Below are positions 2,733-32,264 of a stretch of 64,000 bases of DNA, piece after piece (position 1 is the stretch's first letter; each line of letters begins with the position of its first letter). Origin of the DNA: a bacterium (GTDB lineage Bacteria; Patescibacteriota; Microgenomatia; UBA1406; GWC2-37-13); the NCBI GenBank assembly GCA_029573715.1, contig JAKQDR010000172.1:112241-176240 (forward strand). The letters run 5' to 3'. A program made the translations under genes and the position numbers. The notes under the pieces are model-generated. The model saw nothing but the letters and a program-made list of their open reading frames with translations, was not told the origin of the DNA and did no database searches.

Positions 2733-5629
2733 AAAAGTACATGCACCATATTGTCGCACTAGCGATTTTGACGAGCATCGCAGTCTTTGTGCTCACTCGT
2801 AATTATGTGCCAGGCACCACGATTGCCGGATGGGATGATTTGCATCCAGAATTTGATTTCGGCCTCGCATTATCGCGGACTTTTGAAGGTGTGTGGCGTG
2901 CCGATCAGGGGTTGGGCACTGTTGCAGGGCACTCGCATATGGTAGAGATGCCGCGCATCGTGGTCTTGTGGTTGATATCACATTTTGTACCTACAGAGCA
3001 GGTGCGGTTTGCATTTGTTGCATTGAGCATGCTTTTTGGCGTGTGGGGCATGTACGCATTTGTGTACTATATTTCAAGATACTTTGGCACCCATCTCCCA
3101 CACCATCTCACTTATACCCGTTCGGCAGTTGCCGTTATAGCGAGTCTCATATATATGCTCCACATCGGAGTAATACAGCAATTCATATTGCCGTTTGAGA
3201 TGTTTATGGTGCAGTTTGCTTTGACGCCATGGCTCATGCTGGGAGCATTGAGTTATGTTACATCAAGAAACACAATACATCTTCTCATTTTTGCATGTAT
3301 CACATTTTTCTATTCCTCTACTGCATATGCCGCTACTTTGTGGTATGTCTTTTTTGGAATGTTTCTACTTTGGGCTTTTGGGTATGTGCGCAAACGCACT
3401 ATCCGTCCTTTTCTCATATTGTTTATAGTATTTCTTGCGATGAATCTGTATTGGCTGGGTCCTAATATCTACTTTGCAATGCAAAGAGGTCATGAAGTGC
3501 AAACATCAAAAATTAACACCATCTTTTCACCGGATATATTTGCGGCTAACAAGCAGTTTGGAAATCCTGCGGACGCACTTCTTTTGAAAGGGTTTCTCTT
3601 TGATTGGAAAGTGTATGATCATCAGTCGCAGGAACATGTGCAGATCATGCAAGCATGGCGTGACCATCTACAAAACCCATGGGTTCGTACTCTATCTTAT
3701 ACTCTGTCACTTATTGCTCTGCTGGGTATTATTCTCTCATTAGTATTGCGCAATCGTATTGTAGCTTCATTTGCAGTGTTCTTCCTAGTGCCGCTAATGA
3801 TGCTTCTTAATGGAATGTGGCCCATAAGTGGTTGGTATGAAACGCTCTCTCACCATATTCCTCTTGCTAAAGAAGCACTCAGGACACCATTTACCAAGGT
3901 ATCTATTCCCGCTGTGTTTGGCATCGCACTCTTTTTTGCGTATGTGCTTTCTTTTATCTGTCGTTTAAGCAAATGGATGCGATGTGGTTTACTCGTTCTC
4001 TTTGCCATAGCTATACTGTGGGTGGGATGTCCGGCTTTTTACGGCGGATACATTCATAAATCTGTGCAGATACGTATACCTATAGAATACAAAGATGTAT
4101 TTACCTATTTCAGAAGTCAACCACCTCATGCCCGTGTGGCCTTGTTTCCGCTGCATACGTTTTGGAATTGGACACACTATGCATGGGGATACCAGGGAGC
4201 AGGGTTTCTACAGTTTGGGATACCCCAACCAATACTCGACAGAGATTATGACAGATGGAGCAAATACAATGAACAATACAATCGAGAGATGTCGTATGCG
4301 CTGTATGCTCAAAACTCCCTCATATTAGCCCATACGCTCAATAAATATAATGTTGATTACATACTCGTTGACACTAGTGTTTTTGAGCCTTCCCTCCCTT
4401 CTCAACACAGTTTGCTTCATTGGCTTATGCCAGAATATATTGCACAGACACAACTGTTTGAGGAGCCAGTGCAGTTTGGGGACCATATCTTGATATACAA
4501 ACGGCGTATGCAATTATCTCCGCAAGTATCACTCGTGCCAGACGCGATTGAGTTTGCTGCATCAACAGCACAAAGCCCGATGGACGCTCAGTATATTTCT
4601 GTAGGTAACTACTATACAAATGTATCTCATGACACTACCGATAGTACACAAAGTCAAATAGAACGCTCACCCAATTACGTAAATAGCGAATGGCGTGCAG
4701 ATTTCTCACGGGATAATTGGGGCATATGTGCCGAGGTGCATGATGGTCAGTCAAAAAGAGTGCGTGAAAACAATAGAGTATTGTACGAGGCATATGATAC
4801 TAATCTATGTGAAACCGTAGAATTTATAGAAGTAGATCATGCAAAGGCATATGAGCTCTCCATTACTCATGAGAATCTGGAGGGCCGACCTATCATGATT
4901 TGTCTAAAAAATTTGCTCACCGGGCATTGTGACGTAAATGAGCAGCTAACGTCAGGGTCACAAAAGCGCACAGATCGCTTTGCTGTGCAACCTCTTTGGG
5001 ATTATGGGTTCGGATATCAGCTTGAGCTGACCACCATCGCGAGAGGGCGAGGAGTAAGTCGCAACAATCTATATGATGTTGTTTTGCGTGAAGTAGAAAA
5101 AGAAATAGTGATAAGAGATGTTTCAGACAACAATATACAAATTGAATATGAGGATACATCACGGTATTGGAAAGAAGTCAAGGTTCAAACTAATATGAAA
5201 AAATTAGAACCTCAGCTACTTGTTCTCAACCAAGCCTACTCACCGGGGTGGATAGGGCTTTCGGTTCAAAGTTTAAAGTTCAAGGTTCATGGATTTGAGA
5301 TGTACTTACCAACATTAGTATTACTCCCCCATGTGAAGGTGAATGGGTGGGCGAACGGTTGGTCAATCGATAGTACAGAGTACAAAGTACAGGGTACAGA
5401 GCACAAAGAACTCAGCGCTCAGCACCCCGCTGAGATTTCAAAGAGCAAGAAGCAATCTAATCTAAGCACCATGAACCATGCGCCAAGCACCAAGAGCTAT
5501 GCACCAAGCACAAAAGTTCTCCTCCTCTTCTGGCCTCAATATTTGCAGTATGTGGGGTTTGGAATACTCTTGTTGACAATGGGCGTGCTTATCGGAATAC
5601 GCACAGTTAACCTAATAAAGGTCAGATAA
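2729..5629 (+). CDS. large (966 aa) polytopic membrane protein, probable GT-C type glycosyltransferase (AftD/DUF3367-like N-terminus) with extracytoplasmic C-terminal domain and C-terminal TM anchor
   Basis: Long ORF translationally coupled to the upstream GT39-like gene. The N-terminal half has more than 10 hydrophobic segments. The N-terminus GWDDLHPEFDF...W..DQGLG resembles AftD-like proteins by eye only. Confidence 0.5.
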   Translation: MKKYMHHIVALAILTSIAVFVLTRNYVPGTTIAGWDDLHPEFDFGLALSRTFEGVWRADQGLGTVAGHSHMVEMPRIVVLWLISHFVPTEQVRFAFVALSMLFGVWGMYAFVYYISRYFGTHLPHHLTYTRSAVAVIASLIYMLHIGVIQQFILPFEMFMVQFALTPWLMLGALSYVTSRNTIHLLIFACITFFYSSTAYAATLWYVFFGMFLLWAFGYVRKRTIRPFLILFIVFLAMNLYWLGPNIYFAMQRGHEVQTSKINTIFSPDIFAANKQFGNPADALLLKGFLFDWKVYDHQSQEHVQIMQAWRDHLQNPWVRTLSYTLSLIALLGIILSLVLRNRIVASFAVFFLVPLMMLLNGMWPISGWYETLSHHIPLAKEALRTPFTKVSIPAVFGIALFFAYVLSFICRLSKWMRCGLLVLFAIAILWVGCPAFYGGYIHKSVQIRIPIEYKDVFTYFRSQPPHARVALFPLHTFWNWTHYAWGYQGAGFLQFGIPQPILDRDYDRWSKYNEQYNREMSYALYAQNSLILAHTLNKYNVDYILVDTSVFEPSLPSQHSLLHWLMPEYIAQTQLFEEPVQFGDHILIYKRRMQLSPQVSLVPDAIEFAASTAQSPMDAQYISVGNYYTNVSHDTTDSTQSQIERSPNYVNSEWRADFSRDNWGICAEVHDGQSKRVRENNRVLYEAYDTNLCETVEFIEVDHAKAYELSITHENLEGRPIMICLKNLLTGHCDVNEQLTSGSQKRTDRFAVQPLWDYGFGYQLELTTIARGRGVSRNNLYDVVLREVEKEIVIRDVSDNNIQIEYEDTSRYWKEVKVQTNMKKLEPQLLVLNQAYSPGWIGLSVQSLKFKVHGFEMYLPTLVLLPHVKVNGWANGWSIDSTEYKVQGTEHKELSAQHPAEISKSKKQSNLSTMNHAPSTKSYAPSTKVLLLFWPQYLQYVGFGILLLTMGVLIGIRTVNLIKVR

Positions 5630-25675: not shown

Positions 25676-27469
25676 ATGCACGAAACATCCACACATCAAT
25701 TGTTCGCACATATAGCCGAAACAAAGGCAAGAAAACCTGAAGCACCGCAAGCAACAAAACCAATAGAAGCGTATCAAATTAAGGACACAGTTGTAATGGG
25801 AATGATGCAACGTATTCACCGCGAATTATTCCCGTCAGAGAGCGCAGATGCAAAAATGGTTGCCGAATATGCAAAACAGATGTTTTTTGAGATTACAAAT
25901 GTTGCACAGTGGATACAAAAATTGCCATCAATTGGAAGTTTAGAAGCGTCATTACCATCACTATCCGGAAAATTAGTTCACACAGCACGCATTCTTGCTG
26001 AATCCCCGCAGGTCACTCTAAGAGATCCTGCATTAGCATGGAAGGCGCGACGGATACTCGTCCATATGTTGAATACTCTTGAGATCGCAACAGATAGTAA
26101 GTCGGGGGAACTACGGCAAGGAGTAGGTGGTATATCTGGTGTTCAGTTGGCTCAGCACATTAATGCTGAAGCAACACGTCTCGCTGGCGTCCTCAGGGCA
26201 TTACCTGACACAAGAGACATCAAAGTAGTATGCATTACAGATGGCGTTTACGGATATAGATTTCAACTTCCCCAATATGGGCGTGATTCACTCAATATTG
26301 TAGTGAGTCAGATTGCTGATAATGCATCTGTGCAAAATCCACTCAGAATAGATAAATCTAACATGCGTGATCCCGAGGTGGCACGAGCACTTGTTGCCCG
26401 ATTGCAATCAAAAGCAGTTCGTCCTTTTGCGCAAGTACTTGTGTCGAGCAACGACATCTTTTTGATGCTTGACCCCAAACAATTTGACGGTTTTACACTA
26501 CAGGAACGGGCGACTCCTGTCCATACGCTTTTGCATTCAAACGCCGATATTTCTAAACAAAGTTCGGGTGAAGCATATGGAATTAATCAACCTATTCGCA
26601 GAGGTCCATTTATTTATGATGCACCTCAGAAAGAGCCTATCCCTATGGAATTATCAAAACAGAGTTTGTCAGCGTTGACCAAACAAGCTGAGGCGTCTTT
26701 ATTTTCTCGACTTGACACGAAAAGTAAACACTATATCGAAAGTCATGCGAATAGGGATAAAACAAGGCAACACGTTCAAATGACACTCAACGCTCTTTTA
26801 GATCTTGTGGACTTGCAATTACAAGTAGAACATAGCCGTCGCACACCTGAGTCAGGCAAAGGCTCAGAAGAATATAGCATGAGGGGAAAAGATATTTTGA
26901 GCCTCATTGAGTTGGTAAGTGATACGAGTGAGAATATAGCAGCTTTTGCGTCTGGGAGCAAAAAAGAGAAAGGTGCGTTTCGGCCGTGGGCTCGAGCCAT
27001 CATAGCCGATGTGGTTGAGGGATTTGTAGTTTCATCGGGGAACTCAGAAAAAGCTCAAATAATCGAAAAACTATATGCAGAAGTAATTATGCAGGCTGGC
27101 ATTCGTCGCAACTTATCAATCCTTGAGCCATCTGACGCGCAGGAAGACATGACATCACAGGTAGATTATTGGTTACGAGATGAAAGATCAAATACGCGCA
27201 TACCTGTGCAGATTAAACGTACGCGTGAATATACTGATGGTCCTATTCGAATCCATAAAAATAGCACACCGCTAGATATTGCCGCTAATCAAATAAATGG
27301 CCGCACACTAGCACGAAAGGCAAACACGTTCTTCGGATTACACCCGGGCGGGATGTTCATCATTCTCCCGTACTACATGATTGATCCGGTTAGTTTACGT
27401 ATACATCCTCATTACTGCGCTCAATCAGTCGACGACATCATTGCTCAGCTTAGAGAAGGTATAAAATAA
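25676..27469 (+). CDS. hypothetical protein (597 aa), no family recognised
   Basis: Long ORF followed by terminator 27510-27558. The C-terminal segment VDYWLRDE...IPVQIKRT is vaguely PD-(D/E)xK-like (weak, by eye). Confidence 0.65.
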   Translation: MHETSTHQLFAHIAETKARKPEAPQATKPIEAYQIKDTVVMGMMQRIHRELFPSESADAKMVAEYAKQMFFEITNVAQWIQKLPSIGSLEASLPSLSGKLVHTARILAESPQVTLRDPALAWKARRILVHMLNTLEIATDSKSGELRQGVGGISGVQLAQHINAEATRLAGVLRALPDTRDIKVVCITDGVYGYRFQLPQYGRDSLNIVVSQIADNASVQNPLRIDKSNMRDPEVARALVARLQSKAVRPFAQVLVSSNDIFLMLDPKQFDGFTLQERATPVHTLLHSNADISKQSSGEAYGINQPIRRGPFIYDAPQKEPIPMELSKQSLSALTKQAEASLFSRLDTKSKHYIESHANRDKTRQHVQMTLNALLDLVDLQLQVEHSRRTPESGKGSEEYSMRGKDILSLIELVSDTSENIAAFASGSKKEKGAFRPWARAIIADVVEGFVVSSGNSEKAQIIEKLYAEVIMQAGIRRNLSILEPSDAQEDMTSQVDYWLRDERSNTRIPVQIKRTREYTDGPIRIHKNSTPLDIAANQINGRTLARKANTFFGLHPGGMFIILPYYMIDPVSLRIHPHYCAQSVDDIIAQLREGIK

Positions 27470-27509
27470 CATCACTTGCATTACCTATAGTATGTGGTAC
27501 AATAACACC

Positions 27510-27558
27510 ATCCCTCCTGGTTTCTCGCTAAGGTTGAGAGGCTTCGGAGGATTTTTTT
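27510..27558 (+). terminator. intrinsic terminator candidate after 25676..27469
   Basis: ATCCCTCC ... GGAGGAT stem followed by TTTTTTT. Confidence 0.55.
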
Positions 27559-27634
27559 GTGGGAAAAATATACCGGTGAAATAGTCTTCCCATTTGAAAC
27601 CTTCATAGTACAATAGGTACAAATTAAAATCTTT

Positions 27635-28606
27635 ATGTACACATACACAAAAAAACAACTCCCCAAACACACCGTCGAGTTTACCGTTGAGATCGTGTGG
27701 GATCATGTCGAGAAAATGCGCGATACCACCTTTGCAAAGATGACCGAGAATGTGCAAGCCCCCGGTTTTCGTAAGGGTAAAGCTCCCAAAGAAATCGCAG
27801 CTCGATATATTGATCCGCAAAAGCTGTATGAGCAAGTTGTTCGATCACTGCTCCCCCCCATATATGATGAGCTTGTACAAAAAGAGAGCCTTAAGCCAAT
27901 CACGAGCCCCTCTGTTGAGCTTATTGAAGCAAAAGATAAAGCGCCATGGAAGTTAAAAATGATTGTCGCTCAAGTGCCCGAAGTCAAACTCAACGATTAT
28001 AAAAAGCACGTGAGCAAACTTCACAAAGATGCACAAAAGAAAAATGATGAGACACCCAAAGCATCAGATGAGTCAACGAACGAAAAAGCCACCAACGATA
28101 AAACTAAAAAATCCCCAGAAAAATCGCCCACAGAAACCGATGCAAACAAACCCGCTGCACACGATGACAACACCACCACTCAACAAAATGTTGAAACAAA
28201 AAAAGTTGCTACCTTGTCTGAAGTATTTTCCACATTACTCAAACACACTGAATGCGAAGTTCCTGATTTACTCTTGCAAGAGGAGGTTAATCGAAAGCTT
28301 GCACAGCTTGCCGATGATGTGCGGAAAGTGGGCCTGACAGTTGAAAAATATCTTGAAAGCAAAAAAACTACCGTTGAAGCGCTTCGTACACAATTTGCAA
28401 AAGATGCGCAAGAAATGTATCAAATAGAATTCGTGCTTGCAGAAATTGCCAAGACAGAAAAGCTCGAGGTAGATAAGGCTGAGCTTGAAGGCATATTGGC
28501 AGGTGCACGGACAGATAACGAGCGCGAAGTGGCTCAGGCGAATATGGCGTGGTATGAGACACTTCTTCGAAAACAAAAGGTGATTGACTTTCTGAACGGC
28601 CTATAG
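27635..28606 (+). CDS. tig: trigger factor lacking the PPIase domain
   Basis: The N-terminal ribosome-binding signature APGFRKGKAPKE and a typical C-terminal domain are present. The middle is a K/E/T/D-rich low-complexity linker. Total length is 323 aa. Confidence 0.8.
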   Translation: MYTYTKKQLPKHTVEFTVEIVWDHVEKMRDTTFAKMTENVQAPGFRKGKAPKEIAARYIDPQKLYEQVVRSLLPPIYDELVQKESLKPITSPSVELIEAKDKAPWKLKMIVAQVPEVKLNDYKKHVSKLHKDAQKKNDETPKASDESTNEKATNDKTKKSPEKSPTETDANKPAAHDDNTTTQQNVETKKVATLSEVFSTLLKHTECEVPDLLLQEEVNRKLAQLADDVRKVGLTVEKYLESKKTTVEALRTQFAKDAQEMYQIEFVLAEIAKTEKLEVDKAELEGILAGARTDNEREVAQANMAWYETLLRKQKVIDFLNGL

Positions 28607-28617
28607 TATAATTTAGC

Positions 28618-29376
28618 ATGGCCTCTATGAGCTCGGGTTCAGGCGGATCCAAAAAAAACCGCAATTACAACAATCGCAATACTCTTGAAGTTGAAAAGCA
28701 GTACTCTGCTTCCCCCTCCCGCACTTCAACTACGCGCAGAAAATCATTTGGCGAATCGGTCCAGGATGTGATGTATGGTGCTGCGCGTGCAGCTGGCGAT
28801 GCAATGACAGGCGCTGCCACCGGAGTCATCAATGAAATTTCAGGTTACAACCAAGATACGTATGATTATGGGGATGGTTATGAAAACGCTTCTCAAGCGC
28901 AGTCGCTTGATAGGGGCGGTGTCCGCATTCCAACCTACGCTGAATTTCAAAAAGAACAAGAGCAAAAAAACATGCAATTTTTCATGGAGCAACAGCGTGC
29001 TGCTGAAGCTGAGGCTCGCAAGCGCCTGGATGAGGATAGAAAAAAAATACAAGAAATCCACGACATGCTGCGTAAAGAAATTGAAAAGTACGAAAAAGCC
29101 CAGACCACCATGAATGAAAATTTAGAGAAAATTAAAAAGATACTTCTTTTGGAGGAACAGCAAGCGAAAACAGGCATATATCATATTACCCATGCGGAGG
29201 TGCTGGTGATGATGTTCCGATCATTCGTTGCAAATGTGAGCGAGTCAAACACCTGGCTTGAGGCGATGATATCGCGCAAGAAAAAGCGGGGCAGCCTCTT
29301 TGCAGTGCAAAGCAAATCCAAAGGTACACAATACTCAATGTCGCAAGAACTTGCAATCGCTCGATCGAGTGGATAA
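28618..29376 (+). CDS. hypothetical protein with coiled-coil segment (252 aa)
   Basis: The ORF has a Q/E/K-rich helical middle (FMEQQRAAEAEARKRLDEDRKKIQEIHDMLRKEIEKYEK). No motif was recognised. Confidence 0.6.
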   Translation: MASMSSGSGGSKKNRNYNNRNTLEVEKQYSASPSRTSTTRRKSFGESVQDVMYGAARAAGDAMTGAATGVINEISGYNQDTYDYGDGYENASQAQSLDRGGVRIPTYAEFQKEQEQKNMQFFMEQQRAAEAEARKRLDEDRKKIQEIHDMLRKEIEKYEKAQTTMNENLEKIKKILLLEEQQAKTGIYHITHAEVLVMMFRSFVANVSESNTWLEAMISRKKKRGSLFAVQSKSKGTQYSMSQELAIARSSG

Positions 29377-29444
29377 TGGCCATTGAGAGAGGAGTGTTTT
29401 ACGTTACATCTATAAATGACTATTGAAATATTACCTTAAATAAT

Positions 29445-29771
29445 ATGTATCTTGAAATTAGAAGATGGCCGGATAGTTGTGGTCGGATGCCTGGTTGTCA
29501 AGGTTGTCCTGTTGCTGAAGGTGTAGAGAGAGTTGAAATTGAGGGAGATAGTTTAACTCAAGAATCATATTCAGCTGCCCTGCGTGAGATGTTGGGAGTA
29601 GTTCCTGCGAATCGCCACAGACTGTCAGAGAATGGCCGTTGGGTAAGGGGGGACGTCAAGGCTTTGAGTAATCAGCCTAAAAACCCACGTAATGTTTATT
29701 GTGCAGGGGGCACTGTGGGTTTAGTGTTTATCAGGTCAGCAGCAGCGCAATCGAACGCCACAGCTGAATGA
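29445..29771 (+). CDS. small 4-Cys protein, paralog 1 (108 aa)
   Basis: It has the N-terminal motif SCGRMPGCQGCP (C-G-x4-C-x-G-C) and a fourth Cys near the C-terminus (VYCAGG). Confidence 0.55.
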   Translation: MYLEIRRWPDSCGRMPGCQGCPVAEGVERVEIEGDSLTQESYSAALREMLGVVPANRHRLSENGRWVRGDVKALSNQPKNPRNVYCAGGTVGLVFIRSAAAQSNATAE

Positions 29772-29804
29772 TTGAGTGATAAGATTATTTTTATTTTGTA
29801 AATT

Positions 29805-29963
29805 ATGGCATATAGAGCTGAGTATAGACTTGCAACCCATAAGGCTGATGAGCAGCCACCTTTGAAAGGTGAATGTGGCAAGTATGATGAGTGTTCGGGT
29901 TGTCCTTTACTACCAAGGGGCGGAGTGGTTTGGGTAAGAGGGCTACTGCCTCCGATTTATTAA
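29805..29963 (+). CDS. small Cys-motif ORF, paralog 2 N-terminal part (52 aa; below track cutoff)
   Basis: My translation is MAYRAEYRLATHKADEQPPLKGECGKYDECSGCPLLPRGGVVWVRGLLPPIY. It carries the same C-G-x4-C-x-G-C motif. TAA at 29961-29963 is in frame with the next ORF. Confidence 0.45.
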   Translation: MAYRAEYRLATHKADEQPPLKGECGKYDECSGCPLLPRGGVVWVRGLLPPIY

Positions 29964-29972
29964 GATCATACG

Positions 29973-30194
29973 ATGTTAGATAGAAGGCGGGGCCGCAAAC
30001 CATCGAATGTGCGACGCAACCGAAAGATAATCCATGAGCTTCAAGAAAAGCTGAAATTAACAGCTGTAGCACAAAAACCGGATCGAACACATGATCTAGC
30101 AGATGCTGTGAGAAGGTCGCAAGCTATTGAAACAACTTGTTTGGCGGGAAAACCGGTCACACTTTTTACTGAATGCACTGAGATCACCGGATAA
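29973..30194 (+). CDS. basic 73-aa ORF, same frame as 29805..29963 (possible C-terminal part of paralog 2)
   Basis: It starts 3 codons after the in-frame TAA. The C-terminus CLAGKPVTLFTEC weakly resembles the YCAGGTVGLVF tail of paralog 1. Confidence 0.45.
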   Translation: MLDRRRGRKPSNVRRNRKIIHELQEKLKLTAVAQKPDRTHDLADAVRRSQAIETTCLAGKPVTLFTECTEITG

Positions 30195-30235
30195 GGATAA
30201 TGTTAGGAAAAGATTAAGCAAATAATATAAGTCAT

Positions 30236-30538
30236 ATGCAATTTGAAATCAGCGATACCATACGTGCACTTGTTACACCTGGTGATGGTTCAGATCCGCA
30301 CTGTCACTTATGCGCGCATAGGTTGTGTTATTTAAAGCAAAATGGATTGAGGGGAACGGTGGTTCGCTTGGATCCTCGAGAGAGTGCCGCCAAACAATTA
30401 CGTGAACGATACGGGTTGAAAACTGGATTGCCAGGTGATCAATTTAACCGCAATTGGGCAAGACCAGATGTTGCGGGTGGATGCGTTACTTGTTTCGCAA
30501 ATGAGCGTTGTTTTGTGCAGAGGATAATGAATGAATAA
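30236..30538 (+). CDS. small Cys-rich protein, paralog 3 (100 aa)
   Basis: It has HCHLCAHRLC (C-x2-C-x4-C) near the N-terminus and GGCVTCFANERC near the C-terminus. Confidence 0.5.
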   Translation: MQFEISDTIRALVTPGDGSDPHCHLCAHRLCYLKQNGLRGTVVRLDPRESAAKQLRERYGLKTGLPGDQFNRNWARPDVAGGCVTCFANERCFVQRIMNE

Positions 30539-30599
30539 GGCAGCACTATTTATAACCATTAATTAACGTGGTTTTCAGTTTACAGTAATTATCAGAAAT

Positions 30600-30866
30600 A
30601 TGACAGATACAATAGGTGCGATGTCTGCTGGAAAGTATATTCATTGTGGTGGATGTGACCAAAGAGAAGCGTGTGGCTTATGGAGATTGGGTGGCATGAG
30701 TGCAAGACATACAAGGCCTGCTACAACTGATGAAGCAGGCACACTGTTGCAACGACTGAATTTGACTCCAGAGGCAACCACAGAAGACGTTCTCTTACGA
30801 TTTATATCACCATCAGGTAGTATATTTGTGCGTTGTATTAACAATCATCGTGTCAGGCTTAAATAA
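30600..30866 (+). CDS. small 4-Cys protein, paralog 4 (88 aa)
   Basis: It has HCGGCDQREACG (C-x2-C-x5-C) near the N-terminus and a single C-terminal Cys (FVRCIN). Confidence 0.5.
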   Translation: MTDTIGAMSAGKYIHCGGCDQREACGLWRLGGMSARHTRPATTDEAGTLLQRLNLTPEATTEDVLLRFISPSGSIFVRCINNHRVRLK

Positions 30867-30871
30867 CGTCT

Positions 30872-31060
30872 ATGTCTTACATATATGAACTCAAAATTAT
30901 TGGGCCTGCTCGGTCAGATTGTGGTACGCATCCAAACTGTGCTGGTTGTGGGTTGCGTGCTTTAGGGCCCGGTGAATCCGCCTCAACCACTGTTGAAAGC
31001 CCACTTGAGCCAACAACCAATGAAGCAAATGCATGGCTCAGTAGAGCGATTCAGTTTTAG
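30872..31060 (+). CDS. small Cys-motif ORF, paralog 5 N-terminal part (62 aa)
   Basis: The motif is SDCGTHPNCAGCG (C-G-x4-C-x-G-C). It ends at TAG 31058-31060. Confidence 0.5.
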   Translation: MSYIYELKIIGPARSDCGTHPNCAGCGLRALGPGESASTTVESPLEPTTNEANAWLSRAIQF

Positions 31061-31282
31061 AATGATCCGGATTTAAATTATCCTTTTACAAAAGGTTTAC
31101 GGCGGCTGGGCGTTAGAGCATCTAACTGGTTTGACAGAGCATTAAGAAGAATAAATAAGGCTGCTCCTGAATCTGCTATTGTTATAACAAATGCTTCTGG
31201 ATTTGGAACAGTGTACTCTGCAATGTGTCCGGCAAATAGACAAGTAATTATAGATGCACGTCCAATTGCAGCACAAGAATAA
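31061..31282 (+). other. 73 stop-free codons in the same frame directly after the TAG of paralog 5, with no plausible own start
   Basis: My codon-by-codon translation is NDPDLNYPFTKGLRRLGVRASNWFDRALRRINKAAPESAIVITNASGFGTVYSAMCPANRQVIIDARPIAAQE then TAA 31280-31282. The tail weakly resembles that of paralog 1. Confidence 0.45.
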
Positions 31283-31346
31283 AAAGTGTTTCATCGTTCA
31301 ATCCAGATATATAATGTCGATGCACGTCTTCATCTTTGTTGAACAC

Positions 31347-31952
31347 TTACTGTTTATCTATCTGCCGATACACCCATTCAATTTTTGTTGCCCAGACGCC
31401 ATTGGGGGAGCTTGGTGTGTAAACCTTCATAATGGCGCTTGGTGACGACATACCTTTGTCATAATACTGCTCGCGCAAGCCTCGGCTGATGGTACGTATG
31501 GCCTGCTCATAACTTTCAAAACGGGTGACTTTATTGCCATATATCCCCCACCCCCAACAGTTATATGAGTTGGAGTGAATGTTTTTGCAAAGTGTTGATT
31601 CATTCATGGCGATAGCGGGCAACAGTCGATAGTCAATGCCATACTGCTCTGCTTGCTCAACGATAAGTCGTGCGTAGGGATACAAAGGAGATTCATGCTG
31701 TGCAAAAAACGATTCAAGTTTGCGCACATTCTCCCGCCTTATAATTTGTAAGGCAGATTCACTTGGTGTATATGCCGTCGTCATTTGATGTGCTTGAAGT
31801 GTGTGATGAATGCTTCGCCATGTATATGCAAGTACCGCCACCGATAAACACGTGATGATAAACAATGCAAATAGCGCTATATCAATCGGCGTATGGAGCA
31901 GCGCGTGTAAACGGCGCAGTAATCGCGATTTGTGATTTACTTGATGTTTCAT
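31347..31952 (-). CDS. membrane-anchored lysozyme-like / transglycosylase-like protein
   Basis: It has an N-terminal TM segment. The segment LLPAIAMNESTLCK...NCWGWGIYG resembles catalytic-Glu regions of SLT/glucosaminidase-type muramidases (by eye). Confidence 0.45.
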   Translation of the reverse strand: MKHQVNHKSRLLRRLHALLHTPIDIALFALFIITCLSVAVLAYTWRSIHHTLQAHQMTTAYTPSESALQIIRRENVRKLESFFAQHESPLYPYARLIVEQAEQYGIDYRLLPAIAMNESTLCKNIHSNSYNCWGWGIYGNKVTRFESYEQAIRTISRGLREQYYDKGMSSPSAIMKVYTPSSPNGVWATKIEWVYRQIDKQ

Positions 31953-32007: not shown

Positions 32008-32081
32008 GCGCCTGTAGCTTAATTGGATAGAGCGTCAGTCTTCGGAACTGAAGGTTGCAGGTTCAAGTCCTGCCAGGCGCA
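32008..32081 (+). tRNA. tRNA-Arg(UCG), CCA not encoded
   Basis: GCGCCTGTAGCTTAATTGGATAGAGCGTCAGTCTTCGGAACTGAAGGTTGCAGGTTCAAGTCCTGCCAGGCGCA folds as a canonical cloverleaf. Confidence 0.9.
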
Positions 32082-32112
32082 CAAGTGGATATACGCATCG
32101 AATCCGTGTCAA

Positions 32113-32214
32113 GCAGGTTCCCCGCAATCGTGTGCGATATGCGGGACTAACTGTCCGTAATGCTCGAGTTTCACTCGTCGCAAACGGTCAGTTGAGCAAG
32201 TCCTGCCAGGCGCA
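32113..32214 (+). repeat. truncated second copy of the tRNA-Arg(UCG) T-arm and acceptor 3' strand, split inside the T-loop by a 76-nt two-hairpin element (32121-32196)
   Basis: GCAGGTTC (32113-32120) plus CAAGTCCTGCCAGGCGCA (32197-32214) reproduce the tRNA 3' part exactly. The insert is CCCGCAATCGTGTGCGATATGCGGGACTAACTGTCCGTAATGCTCGAGTTTCACTCGTCGCAAACGGTCAGTTGAG. Confidence 0.8.
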
Positions 32215-32264
32215 CATTGTTGTATCTTAACGATACGAAGTGAGTTTAGATACAACAGTGACAA

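Follow-up and report, generated by a model that had tools for sequence, protein, structure and literature searches.

Why should two of five neighbouring genes for small cysteine-rich proteins each be cut by an in-frame stop codon in one bacterial genome? The stretch analysed here (the window) comprises 64,000 nt of contig JAKQDR010000172.1 (assembly GCA_029573715.1, positions 112,241 to 176,240) from a Woesebacteria-like host (Microgenomates; Candidate Phyla Radiation, CPR) with relatives named Candidatus Woesebacteria. At 29445-31282 it holds five consecutive plus-strand open reading frames (ORFs; U1 to U5), each with three N-terminal Cys and a C-terminal Cys. An initial annotation, made from the letters of the window, had proposed fresh pseudogenes, programmed readthrough or a deliberate split into two polypeptides. 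Its description of the locus was accurate: all five Cys motifs that it quoted and the extra C-terminal Cys are present in the translations, U2 stops at TAA 29961 and resumes in the same frame at 29973, and U5 stops at TAG 31058 and is followed by 73 stop-free codons. We conclude, with a probability of about 0.75, that the array is an orphan four-Cys family under birth-and-death evolution, with two fresh pseudogenes and no recoding.

We found that contig L008 (JGI 3300027924) matches window positions 27199-31277 without gaps at 99.46% identity, with 22 differing positions, and that it has sense codons at both stop sites: GAA at U2 codon 53 (T in the window and G in L008 at 29961) and TGG at U5 codon 63 (A and G, respectively, at 31059). 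Hence, each stop is a single-base change. U1 to U4 are intact in L008, U5 is open up to the end of the contig, and the 52 residues (aa) of the U2 fragment open an ORF of 129 aa. L006-A, a U5-like paralog of another strain, has Trp at the corresponding place as well; hence, TGG is the ancestral codon in U5.

The same stops were present in three further assemblies. L113 (JGI 3300010356, 448 kb), L114 (SRR4236648, Logan) and L115 (ERZ27257434, ENA) match the window at 100% identity over 2.9-4.7 kb; both stops are covered by L113 and L114, and L115, which ends at window position 30353, includes the U2 stop only. The split U2 is found on 13 contigs, where its 73-aa post-stop ORF is annotated as a separate protein, and the U5 N-terminal fragment is annotated as a 62-aa protein on 7. 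Since independent assemblies are identical to the window with the stops included, sequencing error, which the initial annotation had named as a way for its proposal to fail, is ruled out at the level of assemblies. The stops are real single-base nonsense mutations (GAA to TAA and TGG to TAG) that occur together in one clone found in several samples.

We found that long ORFs of the genome end on all three stop codons (TAA 506, TGA 297, TAG 193), that none of its 62 tRNAs has a stop anticodon or is a suppressor, and that it carries two release-factor genes with a PCRF domain. The genome uses the standard genetic code. The stops are not conserved in relatives: L008 has sense codons, and the other strains lack those codons or are broken elsewhere. 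Programmed readthrough therefore lacks support, because the two stops differ, both are missing in L008, no suppressor tRNA was found, release-factor genes are in place and every stop codon is in use. The disruptions seen across strains are scattered (at about codons 34, 41, 53, 55, 63 and 99) and of four different kinds, so the similar position of the two stops, noted in the initial annotation, is not a programmed site. Hence, there is no evidence of recoding at the U2 and U5 stops. Of the three original proposals, fresh pseudogenes are the one that the sense codons of L008, the Trp of L006-A, the neutral pattern of substitution described next and the breakage of other units by other means in other strains all favor.

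Between the window and L008, we found 4 synonymous and no nonsynonymous changes in tig and the neighbouring DUF5660 gene, in comparison with 1 synonymous, 8 nonsynonymous and 2 nonsense changes in the island that holds the array. Under random mutation of these ORFs, the expected shares are 23.6% for synonymous, 71.6% for nonsynonymous and 4.8% for nonsense changes, and the probability of at least 2 nonsense changes among 11 is then 0.095. Relative to strains of roughly 95% identity, the ratio of nonsynonymous to synonymous rates (dN/dS) was 0.16 for tig, 0.05 for the DUF5660 gene and 0.01-0.02 for the lysozyme-like gene on the other side of the array; it was 1.2-1.4 for U1 and 0.45 for U3. The dN of U1 (0.09-0.14) is not above the synonymous rate of the flanking genes (0.13-0.21). 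Hence, U1 shows neutral drift without acceleration. Judged by these rates, the units appear to be under no detectable purifying selection at present within the window's species.

We also found that the U1 ortholog of another species, on L010 (flanks about 80% identical), is an intact ORF of 104 aa that keeps its four Cys at 39-43% identity. The proportions of nonsynonymous and synonymous differences (pN and pS) are 0.39 and 0.755, the latter saturated, and by simulation the chance that so much neutral change would leave the U1 ORF open is about 2%. Hence, U1 was kept as a gene across the species split, and the array appears to be under relaxed selection in the window's species.

The DUF5660 gene and the lysozyme-like gene are convergent, and in about 30 related metagenome and genome loci only 13-52 bp separate their stop codons; the pair is conserved widely in this CPR group (e.g. 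L032, L036, L041). By comparison with those loci, the island is an insertion into the junction of the two genes. The initial annotation had set it between tig and the lysozyme-like gene, which is right, except that the DUF5660 gene sits between tig and the array (Table 1).

We found the junction to measure 1970 bp, with five units, in the window and in L008. It measures 1698 bp in L006 and L007, which hold U1, a U2 truncated by deletion, U3 and a further pair of divergent members, of which one is frameshifted and the other has a TAA within its Cys motif. Relative to the window, these two contigs lack 29925-30187 and have 30527-31345 swapped for about 800 bp holding the two other members. L009 (610 bp) retains only a U1 truncated at 98 aa and the shortened U2, and L010 (930 bp) has U1, a fusion remnant and one further unit. 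In the same genus, G003 (411 bp) has one 119-aa ORF with CX2CX5C and a C-terminal Cys strand, and G001 and G009 have no island. The U1 orthologs are 83% identical in L006 and L007 and 74% identical in L009, and the U3 ortholog of L006 is 99 aa long. The deletion that truncates U2 in L006, L007 and L009 has CGGA microhomology at its two ends, and where the blastn segments meet at the deletion they share 4 nt. Among strains of the window's species the number of units ranges from one to five, and deletion, frameshift, nonsense mutation and cassette replacement have all altered them.

In a tree of the lysozyme-like protein, G003 groups with G001 and G009, sister to the window's clade; this points to old presence with later losses, or to independent gains. 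The proposal of accessory or mobile DNA holds in its accessory part, as content varies between strains, and finds no support in its mobile part: none of the island's ORFs was seen to be a mobility gene, the island has neither terminal repeats nor a second copy in the genome, and a true relative among viruses was not found. Integron attC-like repeats were not found in the spacers either, with no significant hairpins (z from -0.85 to +0.72) and no recurring inverted repeat. There is no evidence of mobility or of a role in defense for the array.

Table 1. Features of the array and its flanks in window coordinates (Cys positions are residue numbers)
Feature	Coordinates	Strand	Description
DUF5660 gene	28618..29376	+	Left flank, co-directional with the array; Pfam PF18904, E 3.4e-19
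U1	29445..29771	+	108 aa, intact; Cys 12/18/21/86 (CX5CX2CX64C)
U2, whole frame	29805..30194	+	In-frame TAA at 29961-29963 and in-frame ATG at 29973
U2 N-terminal fragment	29805..29963	+	52 aa; Cys 24/30/33; ends at the nonsense codon
Left CGGA microhomology	29921..29924	+	Breakpoint of the deletion truncating U2 in L006, L007 and L009
TAA nonsense codon	29961..29963	+	U2 codon 53; GAA (Glu) in L008
U2 C-terminal fragment	29973..30194	+	73-aa ORF; in-frame ATG 9 nt past the stop; bears the C-terminal Cys strand TTCLAGKPVTLFTEC
Right CGGA microhomology	30188..30191	+	Other end of the U2 deletion
U3	30236..30538	+	100 aa, intact; type II CX2CX4C at 23/26/31, plus C-terminal Cys 83/86/92
U4	30600..30866	+	88 aa, intact; type II CX2CX5C at 16/19/25, plus Cys 79
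U5, whole frame	30872..31282	+	Cys 17/23/26/119; TAG at 31058-31060
U5 N-terminal fragment	30872..31060	+	62 aa; Cys 17/23/26; ends at the nonsense codon
TAG nonsense codon	31058..31060	+	U5 codon 63; TGG (Trp) in L008
U5 C-terminal remnant	31061..31282	+	73 open codons and TAA, with no in-frame start near its head; contains Cys 119
Lysozyme-like gene	31347..31952	-	Glucosaminidase/SLT-like; right flank, convergent with the array; N-terminal hydrophobic segment; weak Pfam and PHROG matches below cut-offs

That the units form one family was approached through the motif class, defined as Cx5Cx2C or Cx2Cx4-5C within the first 50 residues. We found this class in 1.1% of the genome's ORFs of at least 80 aa; hence, five motif-bearing ORFs in a row are not chance. 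Pairwise BLASTP matches among the units are weak (E from 6e-4 to insignificant) and centred on the Cys knuckle. Alignments that also included units from related contigs gave a common layout: Met1 and a short strand, the motif CGx4CxxC in type I units (U1, U2, U5) or xGx4CxxCx4-5C in its place in type II units (U3, U4), a central 'L..R.G..P' helix and a C-terminal 'V-x-C-x-x-G/N-x-x-V' strand. In most members (e.g. U1, U4, U5) the Cys number exactly four and are arranged 3+1. Members without the first Cys (U3, U4, L006-B, G003) have a new one 4-5 residues past the third. Hence, the 3+1 arrangement is preserved in type II members.

A leave-one-group-out hidden Markov model (HMM), scored against 20,705 six-frame segments of the genome, returned U2 (E 0.015), U4 (E 0.015) and U5 (E 0.07) as its top non-training matches. 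The membership of U1 and U3 rests on the motif, the shared layout, a similar start region of 25 nt and their position. The 119-aa ORF of G003 is a probable member (HMM E 0.07); its hhalign match to the family is weak, with the C-terminal Cys strand as the only aligned part (probability 2%). The five ORFs are, or recently were, real genes of a lineage-restricted tandem family of small proteins.

Codon 92 of U3 is TGT (Cys; 30511) in the window strain and TGG (Trp) in L008 and L006; the sixth Cys of U3 is a recent gain in the window strain.

We found three close relatives of U1 among 5.8 billion protein clusters, and their contigs were used for the strain comparison. When 1.84 billion proteins, representing about 15 billion, were searched with a profile, the only matches were proteins of this locus and two long unrelated ones. 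When U1 and the family profile were run against 60 relatives and 223 genomes of the order, the genome of the window (G000) alone scored among the 223, and neither tblastn with the units nor blastn and tblastx with the island revealed a second copy in the whole genome. Eighty metagenome loci reached through the lysozyme-like neighbour gave no further member, and the family profile had no match among PDB sequences at E up to 10. A match in G007 (locus L002, E 0.03) was noise. Two IMG/VR matches to U1 were chance, their seed peptide ENGRWVRG lying in an unrelated 350-aa protein without the Cys motif, and U3 had no viral match in IMG/VR. The initial annotation recognized no known family, and with no relative in those 1.84 billion representatives or in Pfam, PHROGs, NCBIfam, PADLOC and PDB, this stands. 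As to relatives in other CPR genomes and in phages, related contigs with the same junction do exist in a few species of one genus, and the phage matches are the chance ones just described. Judged by these searches, the family appears confined to the DUF5660/lysozyme-like junction in a few species of one Woesebacteria-like genus.

The layout suggests that one metal centre (iron-sulfur, Fe-S, or Zn) is probably held by the N-terminal tri-Cys knuckle together with the Cys of the C-terminal strand. The two AlphaFold2 models give a strand, the Cys loop, a strand, helices and C-terminal strands; Foldseek found no match to them in PDB at E of at most 0.001, with a best template modelling (TM) score of 0.32. 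Two members have sub-threshold Pfam matches, to the Fe-S loop of endonuclease III (E 0.008; 16.9 bits, cut-off 20.5) and to the Fe-S domain of Fe-hydrogenase (E 0.02). In both interrupted units the stop lies between the knuckle and the fourth Cys; hence, a ligand would be lost under the predicted metal-site model.

In ferredoxins the Cys knuckle follows a beta-beta-alpha-beta unit, whereas in the units it lies at residues 12-33, directly past the first predicted strand. The units share with adrenodoxin/plant-type [2Fe-2S] ferredoxins (Fer2, PF00111) a length of about 100 aa and a fourth Cys in a strand-like 'h-x-C-x-x-x-V' context. Many 2Fe-2S ferredoxins bear the signature CX5CX2CXnC (CX5CX2CX27-82C, table of PMC8928951); this spacing is matched by U1 (X64) and U2 (X78), and in U5 (X92) the form is the same and the spacer longer. 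CX5CX2C with a distant Cys is found in U1, U2, U5, L006-A and the L010 ortholog of U1, whereas U3, U4, G003 and L006-B have CX2CX4-5C instead. No member matches the Fer2 profile even at E 10.

In E. coli RseC, the Cys motif follows a short N-terminal strand, as in the units. Type I CX5CX2C and type II CX2CX5C (U4, G003, L006-B; CX2CX4C in U3) are overlapping halves of the RseC/MucC motif CX5CX2CX5C, of which the CX2CX5C core binds an Fe-S cluster (PMC11729352). RseC differs in having two transmembrane helices, whereas the units have none, and in the units the fourth ligand would be the distant C-terminal Cys; no RseC/MucC match was found with Pfam.

WhiB-like (Wbl) [4Fe-4S] proteins have about 80-130 aa and four Cys, with a CX2CX5C core and a lone Cys N-terminal to the triad, and are not known from outside Actinobacteria and their phages. 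The C-x-x-C-P-V of U1 resembles their 'CxxCPV', but all members have the lone Cys on the C-terminal side, a G[VI]WGG turn was not seen and there is no match to PF02467. As a locus, the array is like strain-variable orphan islands of tandem families, in that copy number differs between close strains, the paralogs are divergent, pseudogenes arise by nonsense mutation, frameshift and deletion, dN/dS is neutral and the place between conserved genes is fixed. It is unlike them in its strict four-Cys layout, in having no relatives off the locus and in the lack of mobility, defense or secretion genes seen beside it.

Several results weigh against a four-Cys family that has just lost two of its genes. 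The haplotype with both stops is commonly sampled and the intact haplotype was seen once, and the truncated state could conceivably be beneficial. The leave-one-out HMM misses U1 (E 7.8) and U3 (E 21), so their paralogy is not significant on sequence alone, and scans of the members with Pfam, PHROGs, NCBIfam and PADLOC gave nothing above cut-off. Codon-usage scores of the units (0.00-0.15) are below those of typical genes (0.215 ± 0.079); the well-conserved lysozyme-like gene also scores low (0.089). The AlphaFold2 models are of low confidence, with predicted local distance difference test (pLDDT) values of 47.1 and 54.7, and metal binding is suggested by cysteine spacing only.

Low codon-usage scores, neutral evolution within the species, the lack of homologs elsewhere and the lack of Shine-Dalgarno sequences, which tig and the DUF5660 gene lack as well, would all be expected if the ORFs were not genes and had merely opened by chance in a non-coding, strain-variable spacer. 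We regard this as very unlikely, since five same-strand ORFs of 88-136 codons share a motif present in so few ORFs, since U1 has stayed open across the species split with its four Cys and several further conserved positions, and since the Cys ligand relocates in a compensating manner between the two motif types. That the stops are errors of sequencing or assembly has practically no chance of being right: the source bin is fragmented and probably composite (313 contigs and 1.79 Mb, in comparison with about 1 Mb in relatives), but the JGI, Logan and ENA assemblies reproduce the window exactly, two across both stops and the third across that of U2. It is likewise highly improbable that the interruptions are functional, with U2 and U5 made either by readthrough or as a Cys-knuckle peptide and a separate C-terminal piece. 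The in-frame ATG of U2 could permit re-initiation there, samples most often hold the double-stop haplotype, and other strains also break units between knuckle and tail. These points are opposed by the use of two different codons, neither of them a stop in L008, by the U5 tail, which has no start codon, by the tRNAs and release factors described above, and by the varied kinds of disruption in other strains (deletion, frameshift, a stop within the motif) at codons from 34 to 99.

A functional family could instead be diversifying under conflict with a phage or a host cell, its turnover and inactivated copies being the marks of an arms race. The dN/dS of U1 above 1 within the species, the different sets of divergent units at one spot in strains about 95% identical, and the survival of U1 as an open four-Cys ORF between species fit such a conflict. 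Yet the dN of U1 stays within the neutral rate, the substitution spectrum fits random mutation, no PADLOC or PHROGs family is matched, the neighbours (tig, the DUF5660 gene, the lysozyme-like gene and HypA/HypB) are neither defense nor mobility genes, and units are entirely absent from two relatives in the genus; we therefore consider diversifying selection unlikely. A bolder form of this idea, in which a genus-restricted family was perhaps born de novo in the 13-52 bp junction, binds Fe-S or zinc, and is kept in flux by phage or host conflict with the truncated alleles as part of it, is speculative and, in our estimate, improbable too.

The events of birth and death observed in the family are tandem duplication, deletion mediated by microhomology, the replacement of units by divergent paralogs, frameshift and nonsense mutation. 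With a 3+1 metal site as predicted, a stop ahead of the fourth Cys would remove a ligand and inactivate the protein. U5 is certainly truncated, as its tail, which holds the fourth Cys, has no start codon; U2 could be made as two pieces, given the ATG past its stop.

As to expression, spacers of 33, 41, 61 and 5 nt separate U1 to U5 in order. We found no Shine-Dalgarno sequence upstream of tig, the DUF5660 gene (27590-27634 and 28573-28617) or any unit, and promoter and terminator scans and folding of the spacers gave nothing above shuffled controls. The 3' end of the 16S rRNA has the canonical CCUCC despite this. Initiation of tig, the DUF5660 gene and the units appears to be independent of Shine-Dalgarno pairing, on AT-rich leaders. 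No member has a hydrophobic segment or leader (maximum Kyte-Doolittle value over 19 residues at most 1.13), so the proteins are probably cytoplasmic. A 95-aa antisense ORF over U2 (29803-30090, minus strand) is also open in L006 and L009 (93 and 85 aa); its codon score is poor, and most likely it only reflects the sense frame.

Other DNA has entered the same junction. G006 and L027 have an insertion of 2.5 kb there, including a gene for a 153-aa protein with YGYQPQQDLPAGGY repeats, and L083 has 1.4 kb of AT-rich DNA. Given these unrelated insertions in a few genomes, the junction looks like a recurrent insertion spot. Further along the contig, in the tRNA-Arg repeat region, L113 has at its positions 4725-4877 one extra tandem copy of the 153-bp window stretch 32064-32216, the rest being 100% identical. 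Hence, the copy number of the tRNA-end repeat varies within one clone. In the genome as a whole, ARAGORN found five tRNA-Cys(GCA) and four tRNA-Gly(GCC), mostly as Gly-Cys pairs on small contigs (C25, C97, C177, C217, C252 and C260); the bin probably mixes several related strains or species.

These results mean that the in-frame TAA and TAG are ordinary knock-outs in a CPR genome with the standard code, and that U2 and U5 are to be annotated as pseudogenes. Within the window's species, the unit genes look dispensable. What is mildly novel is the orphan family of four-Cys mini-proteins itself and its setting at one junction in a few CPR species. The locus is a small, clean case of genes being born and lost in a reduced CPR genome, in which a tight convergent junction serves as both nursery and graveyard. 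If Fe-S or zinc binding is true, the family would be a new minimal metal-binding scaffold.

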